64,000 nucleotides of DNA from NCBI GenBank assembly GCA_046331565.1, contig JAXLQP010000001.1, forward strand, positions 2,158,347 through 2,222,346. The letters run 5' to 3'. Numbering within the stretch: the first letter of the stretch is position 1; the number at the start of each line of letters is the position of its first letter. Made by a program: the position numbers and the translations under genes. The notes under the pieces are model-generated. The model was not told where the DNA came from. It did no database searches and saw only the letters and a list, made by a program, of their open reading frames with translations. This document shows, one piece after another, positions 47,301 to 63,471 of the stretch. Origin of the DNA: Blastocatellia bacterium. GTDB lineage: Bacteria > Acidobacteriota > Blastocatellia > RBC074.

Positions 47301-47591
47301 ATGACGACGATTGCGCTGGTGGCAGGCATGCTGCCGCTCGTCATTTCAAGCGGCCCCGGTTCAGGCACCAATCGTTCAATCGGAGTGCTGGTCGTTGGCG
47401 GCCAGTCATTGTGCCTGCTGCTCACGCTGCTCGCAGTGCCGGTCTTTTATTCATTGTGGGAGGATTTGCTTGAACTGCCGGTGTGGCGTTATCTCGGTCA
47501 TCGTTACACCCGCATCAAATCAGGCCTGCGCGAACGTGCGGTCGGTTATCTCTCGCCGCTCATCAATTCATTTCGCCGCCGACCGCGACAA
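44331..47591 (+). CDS. Efflux RND transporter permease (AcrB/CzcA superfamily). No stop codon before the next gene in this frame; reads through into the OMF.
   Basis: 12-TM RND architecture with two large periplasmic loops. Canonical N-terminus MQKLAEICVRRPVFATMLILALTVVGV. Confidence 0.8.
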
Positions 47592-49958
47592 ATGAGCATC
47601 ATCATCGGCCTTATTGCATTGATGTCAGCACCGACGATGACAGATGCCGCGCCGCTTGATCCGCGTGAGCGGGCGACAGCACAGACATTTCCAGCGCAAA
47701 GACACAAAGAGACAAAGAAGGTTTTATGCTCTCTTTGCGTTCTTTGTCCCTTTGCGCTGGAAATAAACCCGCTGACTGGTGCATTGAATGCTCGCCATGA
47801 CTTTGCGCTGTCATCCGCGCCGCAGCCTGTCGAACAGCAACAGCAGCAATCTCAGCAGCCGGGCCGTCGTGAACAGAAACCGCCGCGTCCTGGCGAGCAG
47901 CAGCCGTCGCAGCAGGAACAACCGCCCAATTCAAACTCGGCTCCGATTCGCCCGCGCAACGAGGCGCAGCAGAGCGCGCAGCCGCAGACCGGCCCGCAAC
48001 AGCAGCGACAGCAGACGCAGCCTGACACGACCGGCCCGCGCCCCGTCACTCCGCAATCGCCGACCACCACGCAACCCGCGCCTGGCAGCGCAGGCAGTCG
48101 CACAACTCAGCCCGGCACGAATCAGCAGCCTGGCGCGACGCCGCCAGCAGGCGCGCAACCAGGCGTGCCAGCCACGCCGGGTCAGGATGTGGGCATCACG
48201 CCGGGCATCGCTCCGGCACAGTTGCCGCCTCAGCCGCCGGTCGTTGCGCCCGATTACAAAGCGCCGCTGCGCCCGCTGCCTCCGGCTGAACGAGTCGGCG
48301 TTGACGTGCGCGAACACACGCCGCTGAGCCTGGAAGAGGCTGTGATGATGGCGCTCAATAACAACAAGGACATCAACATCTCGCGCATTGACACGCTGCT
48401 CGCCGGATATGATCTGAGCGCAGCGCGCGGCATTTACGATCCGAACATCACTTCTGAAAGTTATTATGAACATCGCGTGACGCCGGTCAGTTCAGTTATC
48501 GGCGGCGGCAGGAATGGTTCAGTCACGCAGAAAGATTTGACCGGCAGCGCAAGACTCGGCGGCTTTACGCCATTCGCCGGTGGCGCTTATCAGCTTGATT
48601 TTTCGTCCACGCGGCTGACCACCAACAATCAGTTCGTTTCGCTCAACCCGCAATTCCCTGCCGCGCTGACGGTGACTTACACACAACCGCTCTGGCGCGG
48701 GCTGCGGTTTGATGACAATCGCCGCCGCATCGAAGTTGCCAAAAAGAATCTGACGCTGACCGACGCTCAGTTCCGGCAGCGCGTGATTGAAATCATCACC
48801 CGCGTCGAGCAGGCTTACTGGGATCTGGTCTTTTCGCTCAGGAATCTTGACGTGCAGATCGAAGCCGTCAAACAGGCGCGGCGACAAAGCGAAAGCAATC
48901 GCCGGATGGTGCAGGAAGGATTGCTGGCGCCGATTGACATTGTGGCCGCTGACACTCAGGTAGCGACTTTCGAGCAGAATGTTTACACCGCGCAGGAATC
49001 AGTCACCCGCGCTGAAAACACGCTCAAGACGCTGCTGCTGGCTGATCGCACGTCGCCGCTCTGGTCGCAGGCCTTGTGGCCGACTACGCCGGTCACGCTG
49101 GAACCACCACGCCTTCAGCCTGGCGAAGCCGTTTCATCGGCGCTGGCGAGTCGGCCTGAATTGCAGCAGTTGCAGGCCTCAGCCGAAATCAACGAAATCA
49201 ATTCGCGTTATTACCGCGATCAGACCAGACCGCAGATTGATCTGGTCGGCACGTACACAAGTTCAGGGCTGGCCGGTTCGCCGGTTGACACCGGCCCTAA
49301 TCCTTTCACCCAGGGACTGGCCGGGCTGCAACAGCGCATCAACGACCTGTCGCGTCTGGCAGGGCTTGATCCGCTGCCGCCGCTGAGTTCAGGCGGAGGC
49401 ACAGTTTCCGACCTGCTCATTGGCGGCTATGGCCAGTCGCTCAGTAACCTGCTGCAACAGAACTATCCGACCACTCGTGTCGGGCTGCGCATCACGCTGC
49501 CGATTTTCAACCGCACGGCTGAAGCACAACTTGGCCGCTCACTGACTGAAGCAACGCGCATCATCAATCAGCGCGAACAGCTCGAAATACTGATCGAAGC
49601 TGAAGTCCGCAATACCATTCAGGCTGTGCGCTCAGCCGAAGCAAAGCTGGCCGCCGCCGCTTCGGCGCGCTCATCAGCCGAACAGCAGTTCGCCAGCGAA
49701 GAGCGACGTTTGCAGGCCGGGTTGTCCACGGTCTTTCTGGTGCTGCAACGTCAGACCGATCTGCTTGCCGCGCGTGGCCGCGAATTGCAGGCGCAGACTG
49801 ATCTGAATAAATCCATCGCTGAACTGCGCCGCGTTACGGGCGTCACGCTGCAATCACATCACATCACTTTGCAGGGTGAGAATCCCGGCAGGGCTACCGG
49901 AGAACGCATTTCAGCCGCACTGCTGCGCCAGCTTCAACTGACCAGCACACGCCGCTGA
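47592..49958 (+). CDS. TolC-like outer membrane factor with signal peptide and a long P/Q-rich linker. A MITE copy is embedded at 47667-47800.
   Basis: MSIIIGLIALMSAPTMTDA signal peptide. OMF repeats from about 48320 (LSLEEAVMMALNNNKDINISRIDTLLAGYDLSAARG..., second repeat ...AELRRVTGV). In frame with the RND gene. Confidence 0.6.
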   Translation: MSIIIGLIALMSAPTMTDAAPLDPRERATAQTFPAQRHKETKKVLCSLCVLCPFALEINPLTGALNARHDFALSSAPQPVEQQQQQSQQPGRREQKPPRPGEQQPSQQEQPPNSNSAPIRPRNEAQQSAQPQTGPQQQRQQTQPDTTGPRPVTPQSPTTTQPAPGSAGSRTTQPGTNQQPGATPPAGAQPGVPATPGQDVGITPGIAPAQLPPQPPVVAPDYKAPLRPLPPAERVGVDVREHTPLSLEEAVMMALNNNKDINISRIDTLLAGYDLSAARGIYDPNITSESYYEHRVTPVSSVIGGGRNGSVTQKDLTGSARLGGFTPFAGGAYQLDFSSTRLTTNNQFVSLNPQFPAALTVTYTQPLWRGLRFDDNRRRIEVAKKNLTLTDAQFRQRVIEIITRVEQAYWDLVFSLRNLDVQIEAVKQARRQSESNRRMVQEGLLAPIDIVAADTQVATFEQNVYTAQESVTRAENTLKTLLLADRTSPLWSQALWPTTPVTLEPPRLQPGEAVSSALASRPELQQLQASAEINEINSRYYRDQTRPQIDLVGTYTSSGLAGSPVDTGPNPFTQGLAGLQQRINDLSRLAGLDPLPPLSSGGGTVSDLLIGGYGQSLSNLLQQNYPTTRVGLRITLPIFNRTAEAQLGRSLTEATRIINQREQLEILIEAEVRNTIQAVRSAEAKLAAAASARSSAEQQFASEERRLQAGLSTVFLVLQRQTDLLAARGRELQAQTDLNKSIAELRRVTGVTLQSHHITLQGENPGRATGERISAALLRQLQLTSTRR
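47667..47800. repeat. MITE family C, copy 2, inside the OMF coding region.
   Basis: Near-identical to 26859-26992. Translated in-frame as RERATAQTFPAQRHKETKKVLCSLCVLCPFALEINPLTGALNARHD. Confidence 0.65.
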
Positions 49959-50358: not shown

Positions 50359-51489
50359 TCAGGCGGTGGCGCTTTGCAGGCTGAACCGCAGTTTCGCGCT
50401 GACGCCGCCATAAGGTTCCAGCAGGCTGTTGTCTTCGATGAATGTAATGCGCGCATCGGTGCAGTGAGCGCGGCGAATCAGTTCATCAGCAATCATCACC
50501 CTGCGATCAGCGTCCGTCTGACTGAGCGCCGTCTCAACAAATGGCATATCGTCCTGCACCAGATCGTCCGTCACGCTTTGCGGTGCAGCGGTCAGAAAGA
50601 GTTCTTCGACCTGACCGCGAATCAGCGCCTGCAACGTCTCGTGCGCGCCTGAGACTGACAAGCCTTTGCCCAGATCCTTGTCAAAAAGTTTTTCGATGCG
50701 GCCCGCGTCATCTCTGGCATTTTGCGCGCGCACGGCTTCAAGGCCCGCTTTCATCACTTCCTGCTCAGGCGTGCTGATGTCGAGCCGGAGGACATCAATG
50801 ACTGAATCCTCAAGCTGCTTCGGCAACTGTTCGCGCAGCAGCGGAATGATGACTTCATCACCGGCCAGCACAATCCAGCGAATGTCCTCGCGGCTCATCA
50901 GGACGGTCAGTTCATCAATGACTTCTTTGGCGTGCTGGTGATGAAAGTTGTCAACGTGACGCTGGTAGCGCGCCTGCGACCAGCCGCCGACCTGAGAACG
51001 GTTTATATTGACGCCGGTCACGTCCTGCTGCTCGATCTTTTCGCCCAGCCCGAACACATACAGATGCGCTGTATTGGTGTCGGCCACCAGCACGGCAAAC
51101 GACGGGTACTGATCGTTGACCAGTTCAAGCGGGAACAGATAAGGCTGGCGTCCGGTAAAAAGCTGACTCTCACCAATCGGCACATCAAGCTGCACAGCTT
51201 CAAAGAAATCATTCGCACCGGCACAGGCAAAGACTGCTGCGCCATTTGCTGAAGCGCGCAATTCATCGCGCAGCCACGCATTGATGCGCTCGCAGTCGCG
51301 GTCAAAGCTTTCGCGCTCAGGTGACCTCAGTTCAAACTCATCAGCGCGCGCCTTGAACTCCTTGCGCAGATAAGCCTCAAAGTGATCGCGCCCGGTGTTA
51401 TCAGGCTGCGTGTTGAGATAAAGGCTGATGAATGGCGAATCAGCGGGTTCAATTGCGGCCAGCCTGTCCAGTAATTTATTCAGCGGCAT
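50359..51489 (-). CDS. baeRF10-like (eRF1/Dom34-fold release-factor-like) protein.
   Basis: N-terminal LDRLAAIEPADSPFISLYLNTQPD pattern typical of bacterial/archaeal eRF1-like families. Family assignment from memory. Confidence 0.45.
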   Translation of the reverse strand: MPLNKLLDRLAAIEPADSPFISLYLNTQPDNTGRDHFEAYLRKEFKARADEFELRSPERESFDRDCERINAWLRDELRASANGAAVFACAGANDFFEAVQLDVPIGESQLFTGRQPYLFPLELVNDQYPSFAVLVADTNTAHLYVFGLGEKIEQQDVTGVNINRSQVGGWSQARYQRHVDNFHHQHAKEVIDELTVLMSREDIRWIVLAGDEVIIPLLREQLPKQLEDSVIDVLRLDISTPEQEVMKAGLEAVRAQNARDDAGRIEKLFDKDLGKGLSVSGAHETLQALIRGQVEELFLTAAPQSVTDDLVQDDMPFVETALSQTDADRRVMIADELIRRAHCTDARITFIEDNSLLEPYGGVSAKLRFSLQSATA

Positions 51490-51828
51490 GATTAGTGATC
51501 ACTCCTTTCACAGCGGTTCGATAACAGTTCACTGTGATGAATCAATGTGCAACTGTCGCGCCACGAACGCCTGAGGCAGATCACTTTAACCGGGATCAGC
51601 AGGGACTGGTTTTCGCCCCGGAGGGGCTGGTGAAAATAGCGCGGCAATTCATTGCCGGGAACAATGGAAAACAGGCGCGAGTCCCGTCAGGGACGGTTGA
51701 TGAATGCTGCTTCAGCCGTCCCTGACGGGACTCGCGCTTTATCCGGGATTCTTTTCCCGGCAATGAATTGCCGCGCTATTTTCGATTGTCCCTGCCGGGA
51801 CAGCAGAAGTGTTCTGAGTTCGACGGCC

Positions 51829-53100
51829 TCAGTTCTCACCTGTCAGCAGCGGGCCGACGCTTTCTTCAGGATGGTGAATGTAAGTCTGAATCTGTTCGAC
51901 CAGCGGCGTGGCTTTCCACCGTCGCCCACCGGCCTGATCGTTGATTTTGTAAAGGCCCAGATCAATGTAATAACGCTCGACCGGACGACGGCCCAGCCGA
52001 TAACGCCAGTCCACCATCGTAAAGAGCGGAAACCACGTATAGCCCAGCACCGGAATGCCCGAGGCGCGCAACTGCCGGATCATCGCCACTGACGCGCGCA
52101 TCCAGCGTGAACGCACTTCATCGTGGCCGAGGGCGCTGGTTTCGGTAATGATGATGGGCGTTTTGTAACGATGATAATAATCCTCGATCAGCGCGGCGAA
52201 ACCGTCGCCGTCGTGTTCGATGGAGCGATAAGAGATGCGGCCCTTGTGGTCAACGTAAATCTGTTTGGTTGACCATTGCGGATAGAAATTCATCCCCAGC
52301 ACTTCAATCGGAATGCGCCGTTGCACAATGTCGGCCAGTTCATCGGGCGAGGCCCCGTTGCGCAGCAGCCAGCCGAACAGCGGATGATCGTGCGTGACCA
52401 TCCCGGCAATCAGGTCAAAGAAAAGATAACCGCGCCGCTGATCTTCGAGTGCCAGCACTTCCAGTTCCTGCCGAATCGCGCGGCTCAGACCCGTCGCTTC
52501 GACCTGCACCATCACCGCATTCGGATCAACTGTTTTCAGCGCCTCAACCGTGTTGATGACGCCTCTGACAATTTGCAGCATGATCCGAATGTAACCCGCA
52601 TCGCCGCGCAGATAGGGCGGCCAGAGGCCGCGCCTGCCGCACATCAGCGCATTGACGAGCGGTTCATTAAGCGGCGTGTACCATCTCACCAGACTGCCGT
52701 AACGGCGCGCAAAGGCGGCGGCGTATTCGGCCACTGCGACCGGGTATTCATCGCTCGCAAATTCGCGCCGCAGCCAGAATGGGCAGCCGTAATGCATCAG
52801 GTCAATGATCGGCACAATGCCGAGTTCTTCGACAATGTGCGGGATGACCTCATCAGTCCAGCGCCAGTCAAAATTGCCCGGTGTGGGTTCGACGCGATAC
52901 CAGGGCACACCCCAGCGCGCCGCTTTGACGCCGACTTCGGAGAGCAGCGCCAGGTCTTCGCGCCAGTGTTCGTAATGGCCCATCAGTTCGTATTCATCAA
53001 GCGCACGATGACCGAGCCTCGTCTGCGGCACAAACGTATCCTCAATGCCGCTGGCCCAGATGAAATCCTTTGCGTGCTGGCTCAAGACCAGTTGATTCAT
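51829..53100 (-). CDS. GH1-like glycoside hydrolase (short, about 420 aa form).
   Basis: TIM-barrel GH1-like motifs YTPLNEP (acid/base) and IIITETS (nucleophile region). Paralog of 61460..62617. Start taken at MNQLVLSQ. Confidence 0.5.
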   Translation of the reverse strand: MNQLVLSQHAKDFIWASGIEDTFVPQTRLGHRALDEYELMGHYEHWREDLALLSEVGVKAARWGVPWYRVEPTPGNFDWRWTDEVIPHIVEELGIVPIIDLMHYGCPFWLRREFASDEYPVAVAEYAAAFARRYGSLVRWYTPLNEPLVNALMCGRRGLWPPYLRGDAGYIRIMLQIVRGVINTVEALKTVDPNAVMVQVEATGLSRAIRQELEVLALEDQRRGYLFFDLIAGMVTHDHPLFGWLLRNGASPDELADIVQRRIPIEVLGMNFYPQWSTKQIYVDHKGRISYRSIEHDGDGFAALIEDYYHRYKTPIIITETSALGHDEVRSRWMRASVAMIRQLRASGIPVLGYTWFPLFTMVDWRYRLGRRPVERYYIDLGLYKINDQAGGRRWKATPLVEQIQTYIHHPEESVGPLLTGEN

Positions 53101-53131
53101 AGTGGCGTGGAGGTTTTGAAGGAAATGTTCG

Positions 53132-55138
53132 TCAGTCCAGCGCAGTGACGCGCACCTGATCGAAGACCGCGACCACCCGGTAACCGTACAATCCCAGTAA
53201 TCCGGCCTCGCCCTGCACTTCGATTTCACCGAGCGGCTGCGCTTCGTGCTGCATCAGCAGCCGGTTGCCGACGCGGCGAAAGCGGAACTGCTGAAATTCA
53301 AACGGCTCGAAATTCGGCGGCAGCGGAAAGATTTGTCTGTCAGTCGCCGTGTCGTAACAGAGCGACCAGCGTTTGTCCTGACACTCAACCGTCAGCAGCG
53401 GGCTGTTGCCGGTGGTATTGAGCGCGGGCAGAAAGCCGTAACATTCACCCGGCTTCGGCTCGCCAATCAGCTTTGCATTGATGACGACTTCGTAATTTTC
53501 AGGCAGCGGCCCTTTGGTCAGAATCGAACTTTCACCGTGCGGCCCGATGTACCAGAGCTGCTGCTCACTGATCTGCCAGCGGTCGTCATCGGCAGTCGTC
53601 ACCCAGTTGAACGCAGCCGGATCAGTGCGCGAGCCGGTGAATAAATCTTCCCAGCCTCTGGTCAATGCAAACCCGGCAAACTCAGCCCGCGCATCGCGTG
53701 TCATCAATGCTGCCGCCGATGGCGTCACGCTCAGTTCACCTGTCCACTGCAACGCCGTGCCGTCAACCGAAAGCGTAACCAGGCGTCCGTTGACTTCGAG
53801 GCGCAGCAGATGAAAGGCTGAATAATCGAAATGCGGCAGCGGCAGCGCCTGTTGCGACAACTGTTCGTCCACCTCGAAAGTCACGACCGCCTCACCTGTG
53901 TTCGGATGCAGCAGAAAGATCAGCGCCGTTTCCTCGTCGCTGACCAGTTTGATTCCCGCGCCGCCCCCGGCTGGCGGCAACTCAGTCAGGCGCAGGCTGA
54001 CTTCGGCCAGGAAATACGGAGTGTCGGCTGAAGACAACGCTTCGGCTTCGCCTGCGGGAACATTCTGGCTCGCAATCCCGCTGGTCGCGCTCCAGTGACC
54101 GCCGGTACAGAACCAGTGTTCACCCAGGCCGTGTGCATAATCAGTCTCGAAATAATCGGCGAACGAGGGCGTAACGGGTGCGGGCTGCGGCGTATAGCTC
54201 GGCCCCTGCACAAACATTCGTTCACCGGCAAAATCGAGCGGATCAACGCACAGCACGCGGTCATTCACATCGGCTGACCAGCGATGATAGATGCAATACA
54301 ACTGCCGGTTGTCAGGCCCGCGCACGACTGAGTTGTGACCTGGCCCGATCACTTCGCCGGGAATCGTGCGCAGGATCGGCAGAATGCGCTCACCATCGGC
54401 GGCCTGTGTCCATTCATCCGGCACTTCAAGATTCGGCGTCGTGGCGAAGCTGACCCCGTAAGTTTCATTCTGCCAGTTGCCCGCGCTGAACATTTCGTAA
54501 TAACGGCCTTTGCGTTTCAGCACAAACGGCCCTTCGACCGTGTGCCAGCGCGCGCCGCCCTTTGACTGCCGCTGCGGGTCATAAATCTGCCAGTCAAATC
54601 GCGCTCTGGTAATCGGGCGCGGATTGCCTTCAAGCGTGAAGGGATCAATCATCCGGTCGCAGACGGTACCGGTGCCGATGTGTGAATGGGTCAGAAAATC
54701 GGTGGCGTAAAAGAGCCAGCGGGTGCCGTCGTCATCGGCAAAAACGTGTGCGTCAATGGCGAATTCCTCAGTCGTCAGCCGCACTCCGCAATCGGTGAAC
54801 GGGCCAGCCGGGTGGTCGGCGCGAGCCACGCGGATTTGCATGTGTTCCTCGTCGCCGACGCTGTAATACATCAGAAAGGCGCCCTGTTCGCACCAGACTT
54901 CAGGCGCCCACCAGCACGGATCCAGTCTGCCGCCGGGATCAAGCGCCCCGCCGATTTCACGCCAGTGAATCAGATCGCGGGAATGCAGCACTCCGAAACA
55001 ACGCCCGTCAGGCTGAATCCCGGTCGAGTAACACCAGTATTCGTTCAGGTGCTTCAGCACAAACGGGTCAGGACAGGGACGCGGACAGACCGGATTCAGA
55101 TAAGTCATCCGGTCGGTTGCTTGTTCGACGGCATTCAT
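53132..55138 (-). CDS. GH43-family glycoside hydrolase with a roughly 330-aa C-terminal extension.
   Basis: PDPFVL (catalytic base Asp), AIDAHVF (modulator Asp), EGPFVL (catalytic acid Glu). Confidence 0.55.
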   Translation of the reverse strand: MNAVEQATDRMTYLNPVCPRPCPDPFVLKHLNEYWCYSTGIQPDGRCFGVLHSRDLIHWREIGGALDPGGRLDPCWWAPEVWCEQGAFLMYYSVGDEEHMQIRVARADHPAGPFTDCGVRLTTEEFAIDAHVFADDDGTRWLFYATDFLTHSHIGTGTVCDRMIDPFTLEGNPRPITRARFDWQIYDPQRQSKGGARWHTVEGPFVLKRKGRYYEMFSAGNWQNETYGVSFATTPNLEVPDEWTQAADGERILPILRTIPGEVIGPGHNSVVRGPDNRQLYCIYHRWSADVNDRVLCVDPLDFAGERMFVQGPSYTPQPAPVTPSFADYFETDYAHGLGEHWFCTGGHWSATSGIASQNVPAGEAEALSSADTPYFLAEVSLRLTELPPAGGGAGIKLVSDEETALIFLLHPNTGEAVVTFEVDEQLSQQALPLPHFDYSAFHLLRLEVNGRLVTLSVDGTALQWTGELSVTPSAAALMTRDARAEFAGFALTRGWEDLFTGSRTDPAAFNWVTTADDDRWQISEQQLWYIGPHGESSILTKGPLPENYEVVINAKLIGEPKPGECYGFLPALNTTGNSPLLTVECQDKRWSLCYDTATDRQIFPLPPNFEPFEFQQFRFRRVGNRLLMQHEAQPLGEIEVQGEAGLLGLYGYRVVAVFDQVRVTALD

Positions 55139-55253
55139 CGTGCTGGCCTGCTCCTGCCTGCGGGAACGCGGTCTGCCTGCCCGATTTTCTGGAAAGCATG
55201 ATGACAATCAGGCGGGCGCGACAACCGCGCTCCCGAATATTTTCGGCTGATTT

Positions 55254-55454
55254 TTATTCGGGCATGGGCTGAGCGAACAGCGCCGCAAATCTTTCCCGTG
55301 CATTCGGGGTTTCGCTCCGGCGTTTCTCTCTGGCCCAGCGGACAACCGACTCCACCGTAGTCTGAATGACTGATGCCTGTGCCGCCTCGCGGCGTTCCTG
55401 CTGTTGTTGTTGTTCAGTAATTTCGTTTCGTTTGATCAGTCTCGCTTTGCTCAT
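55254..55454 (-). CDS. Small hypothetical protein (66 aa).
   Basis: GGAGG 9 nt upstream of ATG. Confidence 0.4.
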   Translation of the reverse strand: MSKARLIKRNEITEQQQQQERREAAQASVIQTTVESVVRWAREKRRSETPNARERFAALFAQPMPE

Positions 55455-55786
55455 GGTGATTTCCTCCGGCCAAACGTGCTTGTCAGCCTGAAGTCAGGGC
55501 AACTGCCGTACCAGCCTGTTTACCCCATTCAATCGGGCCATTTGCGGCCCGGTCTGAGTTTCAGCCGCCGGATTCGCACGAAGGAAATACGCCGCAGTGT
55601 CCGTCCCTCGAACGCACGCCAGCACCGGCAGCGTCATGATTTCGTCGCCTGACTGGCATTCGGTTTGCTCCATCAACAGGTGAACAATTGTGTGATTCTG
55701 CAAACTGAAAATGACAGGCTGAGGAAAGGCAGCCGGGACCTTCGGCGGACTGGTCGAGAATACGCCGGGTCTGAAACACAAGAATT

Positions 55787-56317
55787 ATGGAAAGCAAAGC
55801 CAAATTACTGGGGCATCCCATTCATCCCATGCTGATCGTTTTCCCGCTCGGATTACTGACGATGGCGGTCATCTTTGACCTGATCCATCTGAGTACGACG
55901 AATGGTTACTGGGCAGGCATCTCATTTTATCTGATCGCTGCCGGTGTGATCGGCGGTCTGCTGGCGGCGCTCTTTGGCCTGATTGACTGGGTCGCCATTC
56001 CGCGAGGCACGCGAGCCAAAAACATCGGGCTGGTTCACGGACTGGGCAATGTGGCGGTCATCGTGCTTTTCATTGTCAGTTGGCTGATGCGGCGCAACCT
56101 GCCTGAAAGCCCGTCGCTGGTGGCGATTCTGCTCGGCCTGATCGGGCTGGGCCTGTCGCTGATAACAAGCTGGCTGGGCGGTGAACTGGTTGACCGGATG
56201 GGCGTCGGCGTTGACAACGGCGCGCACCTGAACGCTCCCAATTCACTCTCAGGCCGACCGGCGAGCGATGACATTTCGCGCGTCAGATCAATGCCGACCA
56301 CGCACCGGACGGCTTAA
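55787..56317 (+). CDS. DUF2231-like membrane protein.
   Basis: 4 TM helices; HPIHPMLIVFP motif. Confidence 0.5.
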   Translation: MESKAKLLGHPIHPMLIVFPLGLLTMAVIFDLIHLSTTNGYWAGISFYLIAAGVIGGLLAALFGLIDWVAIPRGTRAKNIGLVHGLGNVAVIVLFIVSWLMRRNLPESPSLVAILLGLIGLGLSLITSWLGGELVDRMGVGVDNGAHLNAPNSLSGRPASDDISRVRSMPTTHRTA

Positions 56318-56330
56318 CCAGAAAGCAGAA

Positions 56331-56432
56331 GAGAGATGACGGAACACACGGAAAGAATGGAACAGACGAAAATAAACTCAGGCAGGGTGATCTGTTCCGT
56401 TATTTCCGTTCTTTCCGTGTATTCCGTCATCT
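56331..56432. repeat. Family D hairpin, copy 2 (4 x TTCCGTnnn units per arm).
   Basis: gagagatgacggaacacacggaaagaatggaacagacg ... ctgttccgttatttccgttctttccgtgtattccgtcatctc. Confidence 0.65.
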
Positions 56433-56463
56433 CGCTGTCTCTCACTGAGCGAATGAAAACAAA

Positions 56464-57471
56464 ATGCGAGTAATGGTGACCGGCGGAGCCGGATACATTG
56501 GCAGCGTCGTGACCGAAGTTCTCATCCGGGACGGGCACGAGGCCGTCGTTTATGACAACCTGTCGAAAGGCCATCGCGCCGCCGTCGTGCCGCAGGCGAA
56601 ATTCGTCTGCGGTGAACTGCGTGACGGCGATCTGTTGCGGCGCGCGCTGGTTGATCACCGCGTCGAAGCGGTCATTCACATGGCTGCTTCATCGCTGGTC
56701 GGCGAATCGGTGCTGCATCCGGCGAAGTATTATCACAACAACCTGCTGACGGGCCTGACGCTGCTCAATGCCATGCGCGATTGCGACGTGGCGCGGCTGG
56801 TCTTTTCTTCGACTGCGGCGGTGTACGGCGAACCGGCCAGACAGCCGATTGAAGAAAGTGATCCGACCGCGCCGACCAATCCTTACGGTGAAACCAAGCT
56901 GGCCTTTGAGCATGCGCTGCGCTGGTTCAGTCAGGCTTATGAGCTGCGCTATGTGTCGCTGCGTTATTTCAATGCCGCCGGAGCGACGGCGCATTGCGGC
57001 GAACATCACCAGCCGGAAACTCACCTGATTCCGATTGTGCTGCAGGCGGCGGCGGGACAGCGCGAATTTGTCGAGGTGTTCGGTGATGATTACCCGACCC
57101 GCGACGGAACCTGTGTGCGCGATTACATTCACGTTGCCGACCTTGCCCGCGCACACGTGATGGCGCTGGAACTGACCGCCGAACGCAGCGGCATTTACAA
57201 CCTGGGTTGCGGCGGCGACGGGTACACGGTGCTGGAAGTCCTCAATGCCGCGCGCGAAGTCACCGGACAGCAGGTCAGTGTGCGCAACAGTGCACGACGC
57301 CCCGGCGATCCGGCAGTGCTGATTGCCAGTTCCGACCGCATCAGAGAGGAACTCGGCTGGCAGCCTGAACAGCAGGATTTGCGCGCCATCATCGCTTCAG
57401 CGTGGCAGTGGATGCAGCGACACCCGCACGGTTACGAAGCCGGGGCGCAGCCCGCAGACAGCAGCAGATGA
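56464..57471 (+). CDS. galE: UDP-glucose 4-epimerase.
   Basis: VTGGAGYIGS; YGETK catalytic Tyr-x3-Lys. Confidence 0.85.
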   Translation: MRVMVTGGAGYIGSVVTEVLIRDGHEAVVYDNLSKGHRAAVVPQAKFVCGELRDGDLLRRALVDHRVEAVIHMAASSLVGESVLHPAKYYHNNLLTGLTLLNAMRDCDVARLVFSSTAAVYGEPARQPIEESDPTAPTNPYGETKLAFEHALRWFSQAYELRYVSLRYFNAAGATAHCGEHHQPETHLIPIVLQAAAGQREFVEVFGDDYPTRDGTCVRDYIHVADLARAHVMALELTAERSGIYNLGCGGDGYTVLEVLNAAREVTGQQVSVRNSARRPGDPAVLIASSDRIREELGWQPEQQDLRAIIASAWQWMQRHPHGYEAGAQPADSSR

Positions 57472-58637
57472 ATCACGGGCAGCAACAGGCAGAACGATTA
57501 CGACGCGAATTTCAGACGCGATATGGCCGAAGCGCCAGAATCTTTCGCGCGCCGGGCCGCGTCAATCTGATCGGTGAACATACCGATTACAACGACGGCT
57601 TTGTGCTGCCGATGGCGATTGATCGTTCGACCTTTGTGGCAGCGGCTGAACGCGCTGACCGCCTGATTCGTGTTTATTCACTCACGCTCGCTGAGCAGTT
57701 TGAATTCGACCCTGATCTGCCGCCGATGCCGCGCCGGGGCATCTGGCCCGATTATGTCGAAGGGGTGGCGCGGGTGCTTGAAGAAAATGGCCAGCGGCTG
57801 ACCGGCGCCGATCTGCTGATTGATTCGGAGGTGCCGACCGGCGCGGGCCTGTCATCTTCTGCCGCGCTGGAAGTATCGGCTGGTCTGGCGCTGCTCTCGC
57901 TGGCCGGAGCCACGATTGACCGCACGGCGCTCGCCCTGGCCGGACAGCAGGCCGAACACAAATATGTCGGCGCGAACGTCGGCATCATGGATCAGATGGC
58001 CGCCGTTCACAGTCGCGCGGGTAATGCCATTCTGCTTGACTGTCGCACGCTGGCGATTACTTACCTGCCGCTTGATCAGCCTGAGATGTCAGTTGTCGTT
58101 TGTGATTCGCGGGTCAGGCACAAGCTGGCTTCGTCGGAATACAACACGCGCCGCGCCGAATGCGAACAGGGCGTCAGGATGCTTCAGCAGTTTCTGCCTT
58201 CGATTCAGGCGCTGCGTGATGTCAGCGTTGATGAGTTCAGACAATACGAAGCGCAGTTGCCCGAAGTGATTCGCCGCCGCTGCCGTCACGTCATTACCGA
58301 AAATGCGCGCACGCTGGCGGCGGCCAGTGCGCTCTGGTCAGGCCGACTCAATGAAATGGGGCGGCTGATGATCGCGTCGCACCAGTCGCTGCGTGATGAT
58401 TACGAAGTCAGTTGCCCGGAACTCAACCTGCTGGTGGATACCGCGCTGGGTGTCAGCGGCGTGTTCGGATCGCGGATGACCGGCGGCGGTTTCGGCGGTT
58501 GCACGGTCAGTCTGGTGCGCAATGATGCGCTGACGGCTTTTACTGAAACCATCACGCGCGCTTATCAGCCGACATTCGGCCAGACGCCGGGCATCTATGT
58601 GGTCAGCGCGGGCGAGGGAGCAACTGAACTGACCTGA
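57468..58637 (+). CDS. galK: Galactokinase.
   Basis: GRVNLIGEHTDYNDG; PTGAGLSSSAALEV. ATGA overlap with the galE stop. Confidence 0.8.
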   Translation: MNHGQQQAERLRREFQTRYGRSARIFRAPGRVNLIGEHTDYNDGFVLPMAIDRSTFVAAAERADRLIRVYSLTLAEQFEFDPDLPPMPRRGIWPDYVEGVARVLEENGQRLTGADLLIDSEVPTGAGLSSSAALEVSAGLALLSLAGATIDRTALALAGQQAEHKYVGANVGIMDQMAAVHSRAGNAILLDCRTLAITYLPLDQPEMSVVVCDSRVRHKLASSEYNTRRAECEQGVRMLQQFLPSIQALRDVSVDEFRQYEAQLPEVIRRRCRHVITENARTLAAASALWSGRLNEMGRLMIASHQSLRDDYEVSCPELNLLVDTALGVSGVFGSRMTGGGFGGCTVSLVRNDALTAFTETITRAYQPTFGQTPGIYVVSAGEGATELT

Positions 58638-58893
58638 TTTTATTTCATTAAAATTCCTGCACGAATCTCATTCACTACATACCGTTCCAGAACGTACATC
58701 CCGCATACAAATCCTGCACTGGAAATACCTGCCTCGCCCTGGCAACCACTCATTAATCCGGCGGCAAATGCTGGTGTCATTCGGTTCTTCAACATCCGCT
58801 GCGCATCGCCGCGCAACTGGCACATTCGTTGCACCTGCCTGTAATGCATACTTGCCTGAAAAATAAATTTAGTCATTCCGGTGAAGGAGAGAT

Positions 58894-60240
58894 ATGAAAA
58901 AACATACGACAGGAACGCAGAGCGGAGAGTCTGGAGTGAATGCGGCCAGGTCAGGACAGGCGAAGAGTGGATTCAGTCGCCAGTCTCGCAAGGTTCCGCT
59001 GATTAATAATTACGCTGAGACTTCGCTTTCGTTTTCTCAGGGACTGCCCGATCTGGTGTGCCTGTCACATCTGCGCTGGGATTTCGTCTATCAGCGCCCG
59101 CAGCATCTGCTGAGCCGCTGCGCCCTGGAGCGCCGCGTCTTTTTTATTGAAGAACCAATCTATGACGAAACCGCCCCGCGCCTGGACATCAGCCAGCGCG
59201 AATGCGGCGTCTATGTCGTCGTGCCGCATCTGCCCAAAGGACTCAACGAAGCTGAAACCGCAGCGATTGAACAATCACTGCTGATTGACGAACTCTTTCT
59301 GGAACATTCGATCACCGATTACATCTGCTGGTATTACACGCCGATGGCGCTCAGCTTCACGCGCCACCTGGAACCGCTGGCGATTATTTACGACTGCATG
59401 GATGAACTCTCGGCTTTCAAAAACGCTCCGCCCGAATTGCGGCAGCGCGAAGCCGAACTGCTCGAACGCGCCGATCTGGTCTTCACGGGCGGTTACAGTC
59501 TGTATGAAGCCAAATGCCGCCGTCACTCCAACGTGCACCCGTTTCCGAGCAGCATTGACGGGCCGCATTTTCGCAAGGCGCGGCGCGAAATCGCCGACCC
59601 GGCAGATCAGGCCGGGATTCCGCACCCGCGTCTGGGTTACTGCGGCGTGATTGATGAACGCATGGACAGAGAGCTGATTGCCGCCATTGCTGAAGCGCGG
59701 CCTGACTGGCATCTGGTCATGCTGGGGCCGGTTGTCAAAATTGATCCGGCTGAACTGCCGCAGCGTCCGAACATTCATTACCTCGGCGGCAGGAGTTACC
59801 AGGAACTGCCGAATTATCTGGCGAACTGGGACATTGCGATGCTGCCGTTTGCGCACAACGAATCAACGCGCTACATCAGCCCGACCAAAACGCCTGAATA
59901 TCTGGCGGCGGGCATCCCGGCCATCTCAACGGCGATTCGTGACGTGGTGCATCCCTGGGGACAGCAGGGGCTGGTGAAGATTGCCGATACGGCGCCGGAA
60001 TTCATCGCGGCGGCTGAGTACCTGATGAGTCCCGAATTCAATTACAACGCCTGGCTGCGCCAGGTTGACGAAGCCCTGGCCTTCAATTCGTGGGATCGCA
60101 CCTGGGCACGGATGATGCACCTGGTCAATCTCACGGTCAGAAATCGTTACCCCGATCTGTTCACGACAGACGCCTTCCCTCAGGCCACTGTCAGCACTTC
60201 AACTGCAACCGCATCAATCTCCCCGGTCACTGGCGATTAG
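58894..60240 (+). CDS. GT-B glycosyltransferase (GT4-like), possibly a galactofuranosyl transferase by context.
   Basis: RBS GAAGGAGAG; C-terminal E..PTKTPEYLAAGIPAIST motif. Adjacent to glf. Confidence 0.55.
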   Translation: MKKHTTGTQSGESGVNAARSGQAKSGFSRQSRKVPLINNYAETSLSFSQGLPDLVCLSHLRWDFVYQRPQHLLSRCALERRVFFIEEPIYDETAPRLDISQRECGVYVVVPHLPKGLNEAETAAIEQSLLIDELFLEHSITDYICWYYTPMALSFTRHLEPLAIIYDCMDELSAFKNAPPELRQREAELLERADLVFTGGYSLYEAKCRRHSNVHPFPSSIDGPHFRKARREIADPADQAGIPHPRLGYCGVIDERMDRELIAAIAEARPDWHLVMLGPVVKIDPAELPQRPNIHYLGGRSYQELPNYLANWDIAMLPFAHNESTRYISPTKTPEYLAAGIPAISTAIRDVVHPWGQQGLVKIADTAPEFIAAAEYLMSPEFNYNAWLRQVDEALAFNSWDRTWARMMHLVNLTVRNRYPDLFTTDAFPQATVSTSTATASISPVTGD

Positions 60241-60260
60241 CGTGAAAGGGGAGGCACCTG

Positions 60261-61370
60261 ATGTTTGATTATCTGATTGTCGGAGCCGGGTACGCCGGAA
60301 GTGTGCTGGCCGAACGGCTGGCGCGTGAGGCGGGCAAAAAAGTGCTGATCGTGGACAAGCGGCCTCACATTGCCGGCAACGCTTATGATCATTACAACGA
60401 CGCGGGCCTGCTGGTGCATAAATACGGCCCGCACATCTTTCATACCAACTCACGCGAAGTCTTTGATTACCTGTCGCGCTTCACCGGGTGGCGACAGTAT
60501 GAACATCGCGTGCGCGCCAGTGTTGACGGGCAGTTGCTGCCGATTCCGATCAACCTGGACACGGTCAACCGGCTCTATGGTCTGCATCTGACTTCGTTTC
60601 AACTTGAGGAATTCTTTGCCTCAGTGGCTGAGAAAAAAGAACATATTCGCACTTCAGAGGATGTGATTGTCAGCAAGGTAGGCCGCGAACTGTACGAAAA
60701 GTTCTTTCGCCACTACACGCGCAAACAGTGGGGTCTCGATCCGTCAGAACTCGATGCTCAGGTGACGGCGCGCGTGCCGGTGCGAACAAACCGCGACGAC
60801 CGTTACTTCACCGACACCTACCAGGCGATGCCGAAGCACGGTTACACGCGGATGTTCGAAAACATGCTCGATCACGCGAATATCAGAATCATGCTCAATA
60901 CCGATTACCGCGAAATCGAGCGCGTGATTCCGTTCCGCGAAATGATTTATACGGGGCCGGTGGATGAATTCTTTGATTTCAGGTTTGGCAAACTGCCTTA
61001 CCGTTCACTTGAATTCAAACACGAAACGCTCGATCAGGAAGTCTGGCAACCGGCACCGGTGGTCAACTATCCGAACGAGCATGCCTACACGCGCATCACC
61101 GAGTTCAAGTATCTGACCGGGCAGGATCACAAAAAAACGAGTATTGTTTATGAATTTCCGCGCGCTGAGGGTGATCCGTACTATCCCGTACCGAGACCAG
61201 AGAACACAGAGTTGTATAAGAAGTATCAGGCGCTTGCGGAAGCGACCCCTGGGGTGCATTTCGCCGGACGGCTGGCGACATACAAGTATTACAACCAGGA
61301 TCAGGTCGTGGCGCAGGCACTGACACTGTACCGAAAGATTACCGGCGCAAGGCCGACACCAGTGAAGTAA
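60261..61370 (+). CDS. glf: UDP-galactopyranose mutase.
   Basis: MFDYLIVGAGYAGSVLAERLA FAD motif; HIFHT; conserved UGM C-terminus. Confidence 0.85.
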   Translation: MFDYLIVGAGYAGSVLAERLAREAGKKVLIVDKRPHIAGNAYDHYNDAGLLVHKYGPHIFHTNSREVFDYLSRFTGWRQYEHRVRASVDGQLLPIPINLDTVNRLYGLHLTSFQLEEFFASVAEKKEHIRTSEDVIVSKVGRELYEKFFRHYTRKQWGLDPSELDAQVTARVPVRTNRDDRYFTDTYQAMPKHGYTRMFENMLDHANIRIMLNTDYREIERVIPFREMIYTGPVDEFFDFRFGKLPYRSLEFKHETLDQEVWQPAPVVNYPNEHAYTRITEFKYLTGQDHKKTSIVYEFPRAEGDPYYPVPRPENTELYKKYQALAEATPGVHFAGRLATYKYYNQDQVVAQALTLYRKITGARPTPVK

Positions 61371-61459
61371 CTGAGTCCACGATTGGGCAGTGATTGAGCA
61401 GCGCTGTCTGCCGAACAGCAGTCAGCCTGAGCGCTGAATCACAACCCACGATTTCAATC

Positions 61460-62617
61460 ATGGCACTGTTCAGAAGCTTCTTTCAGGCCGGCTTTGAAGG
61501 AGCAACCGGCTACAACCGGCACGGTGAATGGATAGATCAGATTGCCGCCACCGAACACGATCTGTTCGCCGATGAGGATTATCGCCGTCTGCGCGAAGCG
61601 GGCCTGCTGACGGTGCGCGAGGCTGTGCGCTGGCCGCTTGTTGATCGCAACCGTGATTATGATTTCTCGTTATACGATCCGTTTTTAGCGGCGAGCGAAC
61701 GACACGGCATCGAAATCATTCACGATCTTTTTCATTTCGGGTTTCCTGATTACCTCGATCTGTTTTCGGCTGATTTTCCGAAGCGGTTTGCTGATTACTG
61801 CTTCGCGGCGGCTGATTACATTACGCGGCAGATGCCCGGCGTCTGTTATTTCACGCCGGTCAACGAACCGTCGTTCTTTTCGTGGGCAGCGGGCGAAGTC
61901 GGCTTGTTCGCCCCGCACGCGGTCGGTCGCGGATGGGAACTGAAGGTGCGGCTGATCGAGGCCGCCATTCAGGGCATCAATGCGATTCACGCCGCCAGTC
62001 CCGTCGCGCGGATCGTCAATGCTGATCCGCTCTGTCGCGTCACGGCTCCGCAAGGGAACACGGAGTCGTGGCGCGAAGTGGAATTTTTCAATTCCAGCGT
62101 GGTCTTTCAAAGCTGGGATATGCTCAGTGGCCGCCTGATGCCGGAACTCGGCGGCAGCCCGCGCCACCTTGATATTGTCGGCATCAATTACTACTGGACG
62201 AATCAGTGGGAATGGGGCAGCGCCGGGGTGCCGCTTGACAGCGCCGACCCGCGCCGCGCCCGGCTGAGCGAACTGATTGGCTCGGTCTGGCAGCGATACG
62301 GCCACGAAATGCTGGTGACTGAAACCAGCGAAGTGAATGAATCCCGCCCGGTCTGGTTACGTGAACTGACTCGGGAAGTCAGCACCGTCCTGGCTGAAGG
62401 CATGCGGTTGCACGGCATCTGTCTCTATCCGATTCTCGGCATGCCCGAATGGCACGCCCGCGACGAATGGACACAGATGGGACTGTGGGAACTCAGACAC
62501 GGTGACAACCGGCTGGAACGTGTGCTGCATGAACCAATGATGAAAGCCCTGCGCGAAGCACAGTGGCTGGAGGAACACCAGGCCCGGTCAGCAACGCTGA
62601 CACCATCACATTTTTGA
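61460..62617 (+). CDS. GH1-like glycoside hydrolase (paralog of 51829..53100).
   Basis: YFTPVNEP and LVTETSEV motifs. Start at MALFRSFFQAGFEGATG. Confidence 0.5.
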   Translation: MALFRSFFQAGFEGATGYNRHGEWIDQIAATEHDLFADEDYRRLREAGLLTVREAVRWPLVDRNRDYDFSLYDPFLAASERHGIEIIHDLFHFGFPDYLDLFSADFPKRFADYCFAAADYITRQMPGVCYFTPVNEPSFFSWAAGEVGLFAPHAVGRGWELKVRLIEAAIQGINAIHAASPVARIVNADPLCRVTAPQGNTESWREVEFFNSSVVFQSWDMLSGRLMPELGGSPRHLDIVGINYYWTNQWEWGSAGVPLDSADPRRARLSELIGSVWQRYGHEMLVTETSEVNESRPVWLRELTREVSTVLAEGMRLHGICLYPILGMPEWHARDEWTQMGLWELRHGDNRLERVLHEPMMKALREAQWLEEHQARSATLTPSHF

Positions 62618-62644
62618 GCAGGCCGCAAACGATCTTTTGACGCT

Positions 62645-62800
62645 ACCAGGGGAGACGACAGAGAAAAGAAGAAGAACAGCGGAAGTGTGCTTTCCTTATC
62701 TTCTTTCCTCTTTTCTTCTCCTTTTCCCCTTTTCCCGCTCCTGCGTTCACTTCCTGCTGTTTTCCCTGTGGCATCCCCTTCGACTCCTTCCCTGTTGAAG
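62645..62800. repeat. AG-rich then CT-rich mirror/hairpin low-complexity element.
   Basis: agagaaaagaagaagaacagcggaag ... cttatcttctttcctcttttcttctccttttcccc. Track ORFs 62425..63021(-) and 62687..62893(+) are artifacts. Confidence 0.5.
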
Positions 62801-62811
62801 CAGAGGCAGAT

Positions 62812-63471
62812 ATGTCTCAGATCTTCCATCGCAGCACCAACACGATTGCGCGGGTCAGCATCTTCGGTTCGCTCTTTATTCTGGCGGCGCTGACCTGGGC
62901 AGCCTATGGCATCAACGGTTCGACCTATGTCACACAGACCTTCGTGCCCCGTGAACAGCCGGTGCAGTTTTCGCACAAGCATCACGTCGGTGATGACGGC
63001 ATTGACTGCCGCTATTGTCACACTTCGGTCGAGCAGTCATCGTTTGCCGGTATCCCGCCGACCAAAACCTGCATGAACTGTCATTCGCAGTTATTCCTCA
63101 ACAGTTCATATCTCGAACCGGTGCGGGCAAGCTGGCGCGACAACAAGCCGCTGCAATGGACGCGGGTGCATGACCTGCCCGATTTCGTTTACTTCAATCA
63201 CAGCATTCATGTGAATAAGGGCGTCGGCTGTTCGACCTGCCACGGACGGGTTGATCAGATGCCGCTGGTGTATCAGGTCAATTCGCTGCAAATGGAATGG
63301 TGTCTGGGCTGTCACCGGCAACCCGAAAAATTCGTCCGCCCGCGTGACCAGATTTTCAATATGGCCTGGCAGCCGCCGCCCGATCAGACAGAGCAGGGCC
63401 GCCGCCTCGTCAGTGAATACAAAATTCAGGATGCCCGCACGCTGTCGAGTTGTTCGACCTGTCATCGCTGA
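62812..63471 (+). CDS. actA: Alternative complex III pentaheme cytochrome c subunit.
   Basis: N-terminal TM anchor; five CxxCH motifs (CRYCH, CMNCH, CSTCH, CLGCH, CSTCH). Confidence 0.7.
   Translation: MSQIFHRSTNTIARVSIFGSLFILAALTWAAYGINGSTYVTQTFVPREQPVQFSHKHHVGDDGIDCRYCHTSVEQSSFAGIPPTKTCMNCHSQLFLNSSYLEPVRASWRDNKPLQWTRVHDLPDFVYFNHSIHVNKGVGCSTCHGRVDQMPLVYQVNSLQMEWCLGCHRQPEKFVRPRDQIFNMAWQPPPDQTEQGRRLVSEYKIQDARTLSSCSTCHR

Follow-up and report, generated by a model that had tools for sequence, protein, structure and literature searches.

Why should glycosidase-like genes lie on both sides of a set of genes for making UDP-galactofuranose? The question is raised by positions 51829 to 62617 of a 64,000-nucleotide stretch of DNA (the window, by which we mean the whole stretch at its full length) from a Blastocatellia bacterium of the phylum Acidobacteriota (contig JAXLQP010000001.1, positions 2,158,347 to 2,222,346). 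Here glf, the gene for UDP-galactopyranose mutase (UGM), stands with galE, galK, and a gene for a GT-B glycosyltransferase (GT) between two genes whose products resemble glycoside hydrolase family 1 (GH1). We call these products A and B; a GH43 gene adjoins A. Mammals lack galactofuranose (Galf), the route to which is a target for drugs and diagnostics. Only a small number of hydrolases and transferases are known to be specific for it. The initial annotation of the window put A and B forward as candidate Galf-active hydrolases, transglycosylases, or remodeling enzymes. We found that synteny and gene fusions support the tie to the Galf pathway, while the chemistry is only predicted. We are confident that A and B are functionally part of a Galf pathway. 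Whether the bond that they cut is itself a beta-D-galactofuranoside we regard as an evenly balanced question.

Linkage of A and B to UGM genes across phyla

In the window, B (61460 to 62617, plus strand; the open reading frame [ORF] opens at 61394; 385 amino acids [aa]) is encoded directly downstream of glf (60261 to 61370) on the same strand. The Glf protein scores 392 bits against TIGR00031, for which the cutoff is 304, and 272 bits against Pfam GLF. Does this neighborhood exist elsewhere? A scan with a profile of B, using one genome per species, returned 192 relatives, and we compared synteny around the best 80 of the 192, labeling the genes of each locus by tblastn best hits of the window proteins. 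These 80 relatives show 56 to 87% identity and come from at least six phyla. Their hosts are Acidobacteriota, Verrucomicrobiota (Opitutaceae, Limisphaerales, and Pedosphaera), Alphaproteobacteria (Microvirga and Methylocystis), Steroidobacteraceae, Armatimonadota, Anaerolineae, and Planctomycetota. Upstream sequence of 1.5 kb or more was available for 71 loci. In 48 of these, B is immediately preceded on its own strand by an A-like gene and in 18 by glf, together 66 of 71. The A-like genes upstream of B are about 40% identical to A. For 46 loci, the flanks reach 7 kb or more on each side of B; within 10 kb of B, these loci contain an A-like gene in 39 cases, a GT gene in 26, glf in 23, and a GH43 gene in 10. 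We estimate that the chance expectation of such adjacency for a single-copy gene is well below 1%.

Gene order differs among lineages. It is GT-glf-GH2-A'-B in Opitutaceae, where A' stands for the A-like gene, and GT-glf-A'-B with a convergent GH2 gene downstream in Microvirga; there, GH2 is divergent and upstream in loci without GT-glf. Steroidobacteraceae and other Proteobacteria have a GT-UGM fusion followed by GH43-A'-B, and some Blastocatellia (locus L036) have GH43-A-GT-glf-B-galE. The bracketing of the cluster by A and B is a layout specific to Acidobacteriota, and the A-like gene and B are adjacent elsewhere. The window holds a rearranged version of the module, with galE and galK added.

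The same neighbors appear when A is the starting point. A profile scan of metagenomes with A gave 80 loci at 60 to 82% identity. Of these, 51 have flanks long enough to judge, and in 35 of them GH43 adjoins A. In the 16 loci whose flanks reach 7 kb or more on each side, GH43 is present in 14, B in 8, GT in 6, and glf in 5. Four further loci (L145, L156, L168, and L172) have a eukaryote-type UGM gene directly upstream of A, followed by B and a convergent GH2 gene. Some loci, such as those of Thermoanaerobaculia, have the pair of A and GH43 alone. In all, UGM linkage is seen in Acidobacteriota, Verrucomicrobiota, Alpha- and Gammaproteobacteria, Chloroflexota, and Cyanobacteria. The initial annotation had allowed that the paralogs might show no linkage to glf in other genomes; the linkage is there in many phyla and is reinforced by the fusions described below. 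Because the arrangement recurs across phyla, it is not a product of chance.

This recurrence bears on an alternative in which the hydrolases would simply degrade imported oligosaccharides of plant or fungal origin (arabinofuranosides and galactosides) and would lie beside an unrelated Galf operon by chance or through loose coregulation. GH43 and GH1-type enzymes with GalK and GalE do look like an intracellular sugar utilization cluster, the best solved relative of the GH43 protein is an arabinofuranosidase, and pairs of A and GH43 exist without a nearby UGM gene. However, we found no sugar importer or regulator in the cluster, either here or in related loci, A and B are far from every characterized catabolic GH1 enzyme, and the linkage holds in at least six phyla and has been fixed by several independent fusions. 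We consider a merely catabolic set highly improbable.

Two contigs of metagenome-assembled genomes labeled "uncultured Heliobacteriaceae" (L004 and L011) carry glf and B that are 66 to 95% identical to those of the window, and L011 also shows the Acidobacteriota gene order. These contigs are probably misbinned or mislabeled.

Fusions of GH1-like domains, GT, and UGM

Is the linkage also visible within single proteins? We searched 1.84 billion representatives with the B profile and obtained 401 relatives at E < 1e-30, many of them 700 to 1280 aa long; their architectures were read from Pfam scans and direct comparisons. One of them (P0254) consists of a B-like domain and a TuaH-like GT, with a GT half that is 56% identical to the window GT, and glf is the next gene. 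The reverse order, a GT4 domain followed by a B-like domain, occurs in P0283, Sinorhizobium, and Rhizobium. All three parts are joined in P0287, where a B-like domain, the GT, and a eukaryote-type UGM form one chain. Proteins of this type, about 1240 to 1270 aa in length, are encoded by large plasmids in Chimaeribacter, in Pantoea agglomerans and its relatives, and in Erwinia, and a split version is found on an Ewingella plasmid. Elsewhere, GT-UGM fusions adjoin a B-like gene (Azospirillum, Sinorhizobium, and Methylomagnum). The operon of Azospirillum brasilense Sp7 consists of a GT-glf fusion, a B-like gene, and an ATP-binding cassette (ABC) exporter, and that of Methylomagnum consists of a GT-UGM fusion, GH2, galT, galK, and a B-like gene. 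Minimal sets hold only the B-like domain, the GT, and UGM, as at L084 and in the single gene of Pantoea. Nothing else speaks as strongly as these independent fusions for a single pathway shared by the GH1-like domains, the GT, and UGM.

The A side has a fusion of its own. In Microcoleus and another lineage, GT-glf is followed by a fusion of an A-type GH1-like domain with an RmlD-like short-chain dehydrogenase/reductase, and GH2, epimerase, and GalT genes are nearby. This fusion protein is 733 to 757 aa long (L085, 12710 to 14911; L086, 12607 to 14880); its GH1-like domain shares 31% identity with A and has the motifs NEP and T-E-V.

Database names conceal these architectures. B-like-GT-UGM proteins are called "FAD-dependent oxidoreductase" or "NAD(P)-binding protein" (L091, 9001 to 12792; L173, 7001 to 10756), GT-UGM fusions are called "glf" (L092, 6556 to 8859), and stand-alone members of the GT family are often named "UDP-galactopyranose mutase" by the Joint Genome Institute. 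Other database names are generic, such as "beta-glucosidase" and "glycoside hydrolase."

Some of these operons also encode an ABC exporter. The exporters of Azospirillum, Chimaeribacter, and Methylocystis are MsbA/HepA/NdvA-like and score under all curated cutoffs. A Microvirga ABC transporter 7 kb from the module was a further candidate; it is the cyclic-glucan exporter NdvA (902 bits, against a cutoff of 733), and its position is probably a coincidence.

Fusions and exporters together raise the possibility that B is chiefly a biosynthetic transglycosidase. The product would then be either a Galf glycolipid or a soluble Galf oligosaccharide, perhaps a cyclic one, and lineages with an ABC exporter would export it. 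A comparable role is that of the GH-like domains for chain length and cyclization in cyclic beta-1,2-glucan synthase. Fusion of the B-like domain to the GT in both orders, and to the GT and UGM together, would suit this role, as would the three in-operon exporters. The structural neighbors of the GT include lipid- or small-molecule-directed GT4 enzymes (PimA, WaaG, MshA, BshA, and ManT). GH1 itself includes transglycosidases, for example, SFR2, which builds oligogalactolipids from a monoglycosyl lipid. However, an exporter is missing from the window, B carries no membrane anchor, and the salvage genes galK and galT point to net hydrolysis to free galactose. The sequence has nothing that would separate a transglycosidase from a hydrolase. 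We judge that a chiefly biosynthetic B is improbable.

Family, fold, and catalytic residues of A and B

Are A and B members of GH1, and are they likely to be active? A (51829 to 53100, minus strand; 423 aa) and B are 25% identical (BLASTP E value of 1e-17) and homologous over their full length (hhalign E value of 4e-27). They are remote paralogs. The initial annotation had described them as two GH1-like paralogs. For A, this agrees with the Pfam GH1 (PF00232) score of 53.3 bits, above the cutoff of 22.6, but B reaches only 15.9 bits and falls under the cutoff; B is thus GH1-like by fold and not a GH1 member by the Pfam test. Orthologs of B mostly have no precomputed Pfam domain. The closest database proteins of both are from Blastocatellia (Acidobacteriota), and the 2601 homologs of A are chiefly from Acidobacteriota.

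Both proteins are distant from solved GH1 enzymes. The closest of these by sequence matches A with an E value of 5.5e-16 and B with an E value of 3e-6, at about 13 to 25% identity. A can be aligned with solved GH1 across residues 37 to 372 (about 330 residues), and the two catalytic motifs then fall in register. The AlphaFold2 (AF2) model of B has a predicted local distance difference test score (pLDDT) of 88 and a predicted template modeling score of 0.90, and it is predicted to have a fold of the (beta/alpha)8 glycosidase type. The top 50 Foldseek matches of this model are all GH1 enzymes, with template modeling (TM) scores of 0.70 to 0.75 and 12 to 18% identity.

Neither protein groups with characterized beta-glucosidases, the second outcome for which the initial annotation had left room. 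Against the beta-glucosidase equivalog TIGR03356, for which the cutoff is 478.5 bits, A scores 83.4 and B 24.8. A crude neighbor-joining tree, with two canonical GH1 6-phospho-beta-glucosidases as its only outgroup and therefore indicative only, separates the canonical pair from A and the A-like proteins, from B and the B-like proteins, and from the RmlD-fused type, which form clades of their own.

A third GH1-like gene, carried by some Acidobacteriota forms of the module but absent from the window, encodes 438 aa that are 29% identical to A (L001, 4108 to 5424, minus strand; also L009, L016, and L038). It groups with the A clade of the tree and not with canonical GH1. In L001, the one locus in which its position was checked, it lies between galK and a Rieske/FAD oxidoreductase gene.

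The catalytic motifs are conserved. The nucleophile motif is IITETS in A and LVTETS in B, and the acid/base motif is LNEP in A and VNEP in B; TETS thus does stand in place of TENG in both, as had been noted from the sequence, and the NEP acid/base motif is kept as well. Both catalytic Glu residues are invariant. We aligned the catalytic motifs of 15 representatives covering all subfamilies and fusion forms. Nearly all of the 15 keep the His of H-[YFH]-G-x-P, the N-E acid/base pair, and N-x-Y. The nucleophile Glu is followed by Thr in 14 of 15, and a C-terminal Trp is present in 14 of 15, the truncated P0283 being without that region. Near the C terminus, B has E-W and A has D-W. Because these motifs are conserved across subfamilies and fusions, A and B are predicted to be catalytically competent enzymes rather than degenerate domains, and they should act by a retaining mechanism. 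The canonical N-terminal Q-I-E-G reads G-F-E-G in B and G-I-E-D in A, in a register set by the motif alignment only. The glycone-binding Gln of canonical GH1 thus seems to be replaced by Gly in both proteins, which suggests a changed glycone.

Would that glycone be Galf? A and/or B could instead act in the same pathway on a bond that is not a galactofuranoside, such as a beta-galactopyranosyl or beta-glucosyl bond of a backbone, a primer, or an aglycone link whose cleavage releases the chain; GH43 and GH2 would then be the real galactofuranosidases. The residues offer some encouragement for this, as features of a pyranoside-type -1 subsite are partly kept (the His of H-x-G-x-P, N-E, N-x-Y, and E-W in B or D-W in A), and no GH1 galactofuranosidase has been reported. 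In addition, some B-like domains are paired with ordinary GT4 enzymes or found where UGM is absent, and if the GT4-like fold of the GT means retention, a linkage other than beta-Galf is needed. Against this, the apparent change of the glycone-binding Gln to Gly in A and B, read from the motif alignment, suggests that the glycone has changed, and the minimal B-like/GT/UGM systems (L084 and Pantoea) encode no other sugar-activating enzyme or second transferase locally. We regard a non-Galf bond as unlikely, though worth keeping in view.

GH43 and GH2 partner hydrolases

What do the accompanying hydrolases say about the substrate? The GH43 gene lies at 53132 to 55138 on the minus strand, in an ORF that extends up to 55207; the likely start is the ATG at 55138, which gives 668 aa. 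Its product scores 137.6 bits against Pfam GH43 over residues 36 to 327. An N-terminal five-bladed domain is followed by a C-terminal stretch of about 340 aa (53135 to 54151, minus strand) for which we found no Pfam or PDB sequence match, and the GH43 partners in other phyla, at about 330 to 450 aa, are without this extension. The best solved relative is 4qqs, a GH43 arabinofuranosidase of H. orenii (E value of 2.9e-39).

Beta-D-galactofuranosidases (EC 3.2.1.146) are known in GH2, GH5_13, several GH43 subfamilies, GH117, and GH159, and none is known in GH1. They include XynD of A. niger (GH43_34) and GlfH1 of M. tuberculosis (GH5_13), and a GH43_32 enzyme of Opitutus terrae has weak activity on p-nitrophenyl-Galf. 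At the family level, the window's GH43 protein thus falls within a family with a proven galactofuranosidase; A and B do not, as GH1 is not among these families.

Clustering of all ORFs showed that a cytoplasmic GH2 protein is a further recurrent partner, present in 26 B loci. The three best solved relatives of this linked GH2 are 7SF2, 7XYR, and 9J6N. The last is ORF1110, a Galf-specific GH2 enzyme of Streptomyces JHA19, and its authors name 7SF2 and 7XYR as its nearest structural neighbors. That both partners come from families with proven galactofuranosidases supports the tie of the module to Galf.

The glycosyltransferase

Which enzyme would transfer Galf? The GT (58894 to 60240, plus strand) is the sole transferase of the cluster. 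It matches Pfam Glyco_trans_1_4 and has a weak match to TuaH (74.5 bits, against a cutoff of 550). Its TuaH-like family, with the motif LSHLRWDFVYQRPQH, has at least 8000 homologs and is about 60 to 70% identical between Acidobacteriota and cyanobacteria. It is always beside a UGM or fused to one. Where glf is not adjacent, a flavoprotein of about 500 aa takes its place, either encoded next after the GT or fused to it; this protein matches the UGM structures of T. cruzi and A. fumigatus (E values of about 1e-51) and is a eukaryote-type UGM. The partnership has thus been kept with a nonorthologous mutase.

We found no PDB sequence match for the GT. Its AF2 model (pLDDT of 80 overall, with disordered tails) is nearest to the retaining GT4 enzymes MshA, BshA, sucrose-phosphate synthase, GlgM, and ManT (7QSG) and also resembles PimA and WaaG; many of these GT4 neighbors make cytoplasmic metabolites or polymers. 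As a TuaH-like, GT4-like GT-B, the protein belongs to no known galactofuranosyltransferase family. Its fusion to UGM makes it a candidate galactofuranosyltransferase that uses UDP-Galf.

Sugar supply, cell location, and gene content of the cluster

The supply of UDP-galactose and its conversion are well assigned. GalE, the UDP-glucose 4-epimerase (56464 to 57471, plus strand), scores 408 bits against TIGR01179 (cutoff of 262). GalK, the galactokinase (57468 to 58637, plus strand), scores 366 bits against TIGR00131 (cutoff of 227); its ORF opens at 57402, and the ATG at 57468 is the likely start, giving 389 aa. With Glf, each of these proteins exceeds the cutoff of its NCBIfam equivalog. A is encoded 32 nucleotides (nt) 3' of GH43 on the same strand. 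All of the genes listed in the initial annotation are present where it placed them, and their families hold in the ORF list and in the Pfam and NCBIfam scans. It did not mention one further gene of the cluster stretch, which encodes a DUF2231 membrane protein (55787 to 56317, plus strand; Pfam DUF2231, 126.5 bits). DUF2231 is a neighbor in L001, L005, L016, and L095, all within Acidobacteriota, and other phyla are without it; its membership of the module is doubtful.

Where would the pathway operate? A, B, GH43, GT, Glf, GalE, and GalK all have neither a signal peptide nor a hydrophobic segment, and DUF2231 is the sole cluster protein with a hydrophobic segment. The N termini of the module enzymes in other phyla likewise do not look like signal peptides or transmembrane segments. 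The hydrolases therefore appear, from their N termini, to be cytoplasmic. In and beside the cluster in the window, we found no surface glycan machinery, that is, no lipid carrier priming transferase, flippase or ABC exporter, or polymerase or ligase.

A proposed pathway for Galf synthesis and recycling inside the cell

We propose that a module spread over many phyla synthesizes, processes, and recycles a Galf glycan or glycoside inside the cell and, in some Proteobacteria, exports it; the region would be its form in Acidobacteriota. We hold this to be probable. By family assignment, GalK and GalE supply UDP-galactopyranose (UDP-Galp), which Glf converts to UDP-Galf. The TuaH-like GT-B would then transfer Galf from UDP-Galf onto an acceptor, and B may act directly on the GT product or on the acceptor, by trimming, chain length control, primer generation, or transglycosylation; adjacency and fusion point to these steps and to the breakdown that follows. 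A, with GH43 and, in other phyla, the GH2 of the galactofuranosidase clade, would degrade the glycan to free galactose, which GalK could recapture. In some Proteobacteria, the product may leave through the in-operon ABC exporter. The galK gene recurs in Acidobacteriota (including L001) and Methylomagnum, and galT accompanies galK in Methylomagnum and Microcoleus; such salvage genes imply that the cell releases free galactose in its cytoplasm and recaptures it there.

Several observations weigh against this proposal. A retaining GT using UDP-alpha-D-Galf would make alpha-Galf linkages, and GH1, GH2, and GH43 enzymes are known to act on bonds of the beta-D-Galf or alpha-L-Araf (arabinofuranoside) type, so the predicted synthesis and hydrolysis do not match. 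Encoding both together would also be a futile cycle unless regulated. Near the cluster, the window has no GalT, GH2, eukaryote-type UGM, flippase, or exporter, and an acceptor-priming enzyme was not found in the window. In roughly half of the B loci, and in some of the A and GH43 pairs, no UGM gene lies within 10 kb, a count made on the flanks of the loci. The B-type domain is also not confined to UGM loci. A Deinococcus radiodurans plasmid record (L088, 8932 to 11971) encodes a B-like domain fused to an acyl-CoA-dehydrogenase-like domain, followed by a PIG-L deacetylase, with no UGM nearby; P0264 has the same architecture, and distant B-like domains are also fused to ordinary GT4 enzymes. Because it occurs without UGM and with ordinary GT4 enzymes, the B-type domain is not intrinsically Galf specific and serves other pathways too. 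Finally, our search of the full-text literature found no description of the module, of GT-UGM fusions, or of GH1-glf linkage, and no biochemistry for any member.

In a bolder form of the proposal, UGM, a GT4-like galactofuranosyltransferase of a new type, and a GH1-like domain make up a widespread three-part Galf machine, which in some lineages has an ABC exporter as well. Its parts occur as separate genes, as fusions of two domains, and, in Pantoea, Erwinia, and Chimaeribacter, as one protein of about 1260 aa. Within this machine, the B-type domain would carry out transglycosylation or control chain length, and the product would be a soluble cytoplasmic or periplasmic Galf oligosaccharide, polysaccharide, or glycoside, possibly stress related. 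A and B would then define GH families or subfamilies of their own, and they would be the first enzymes of the GH1 type to act on galactofuranosides. We offer this form tentatively and think it somewhat doubtful as a whole.

If the proposed pathway holds, it would bring a new type of Galf transferase (GT-B, GT4-like) and two new GH1-related glycosidase families of likely new specificity. It would also mean that a Galf glycan is made and turned over intracellularly in common soil bacteria (Acidobacteriota, Verrucomicrobiota, Rhizobiales, and cyanobacteria) and in the plant-associated Pantoea and Azospirillum. The fusion proteins and their culturable hosts make the hypothesis directly testable. 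The comparison also exposes a systematic misannotation of the GT and of the trifunctional protein.

Neighboring genes and flanking elements

Outside the cluster, a 1875-aa ORF at 44331 to 49958 (plus strand) joins an AcrB-type RND pump (Pfam ACR_tran, residues 6 to 1042), a Pro/Gln-rich linker, and a TolC-like outer-membrane factor (Pfam OEP, to residue 1837), and a gene for an HlyD-type adaptor (42381 to 43748, plus strand) lies upstream of it. Such an in-frame fusion of an inner-membrane pump with its outer-membrane channel is unusual and could be real or could reflect a missed stop or frameshift. Beside the module, the gene at 50359 to 51489 (minus strand) encodes an aRF1/eRF1-like protein of baeRF family 10, with a weak match to Rv2629-type hibernation factors (77 bits, against a cutoff of 320).

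Between A and this release factor-like gene, a 26-nt hairpin-plus-T-tract element, CGGCAATGAATTGCCGCGCTATTTTC, occurs twice in opposite orientations about 100 nt apart (51642 to 51657, minus strand, and 51758 to 51773, plus strand). The two copies may be a bidirectional terminator pair. A scan of 51400 to 63000 for promoters and terminators gave counts at or below the shuffled level, and no operon boundary could be called in that interval.

In other lineages, stress or dormancy genes lie near the module (BON, YflT, DUF883, SRPBCC, MscS, and bet genes). One neighbor, at L060, has an HpnE-like N terminus, judged by eye only, and radical SAM neighbors were identified by Pfam. Because these hopanoid and stress neighbors are lineage specific, they are weak hints only.

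Comparison with known systems

How do A and B compare with canonical GH1 beta-glycosidases? They share the (beta/alpha)8 fold with enzymes such as BglA of T. maritima (1OD0) and Ttb-gly of Thermus (4BCE); for the model of B, the closest folds are GH1 beta-glucosidases with TM scores of 0.72 to 0.75 and 13 to 18% identity. They likewise have the N-E-P acid/base Glu, a strand 7 nucleophile Glu, and a cytoplasmic location. However, the canonical enzymes are about 450 aa long, compared with 385 to 423 aa for A and B, and their nucleophile motif is TENG, whereas it is TETS or AETG here. The gene context differs as well: sugar uptake for the canonical enzymes and UGM with a glycosyltransferase for A and B.

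Known galactofuranosidases are secreted or act on the cell wall, whereas the module enzymes appear cytoplasmic. GlfH1 of M. tuberculosis (GH5_13) is a precedent for an endogenous galactofuranosidase that remodels the organism's own galactan. GH2 and GH5 belong to the same clan as GH1. Among the transferases, the known galactofuranosyltransferases (GlfT1 and GlfT2 of GT2, WbbI, the GT111 domain of WbbM, and the fungal GfsA of GT31) depend on UGM and are encoded beside glf, as is the window GT; no characterized one is known to be a GT4-like GT-B.

Two systems offer analogies for the logic of the module. In Cgs/NdvB, the cyclic beta-1,2-glucan synthase, a cytoplasmic glycosyltransferase is fused to GH-type domains for length control and cyclization and works with a half-size ABC exporter, NdvA/ChvA. 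The relatives of the module that combine B-like-GT-UGM with an MsbA/NdvA-like exporter match this logic by analogy and not by homology. Cgs/NdvB has GT84, GH94, and GH189 domains and another sugar, whereas the module has a GT4-like and a GH1-like domain, and the window has separate genes and no exporter. In the mycobacterial methylmannose polysaccharide system, the cytoplasmic GT4 synthase ManT is encoded together with a hydrolase that recycles or primes the product, and synthase/hydrolase pairs for compatible solutes are alike. ManT (7QSG) is among the nearest structural neighbors of the window GT, again as an analogy; that system uses mannose and another hydrolase family, whereas the module would use Galf and is without methyltransferases here. 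What would be new in the module is its GH1-like families, its GT4-like candidate Galf transferase, its fusion architectures, and its product; its folds and general logic are familiar.

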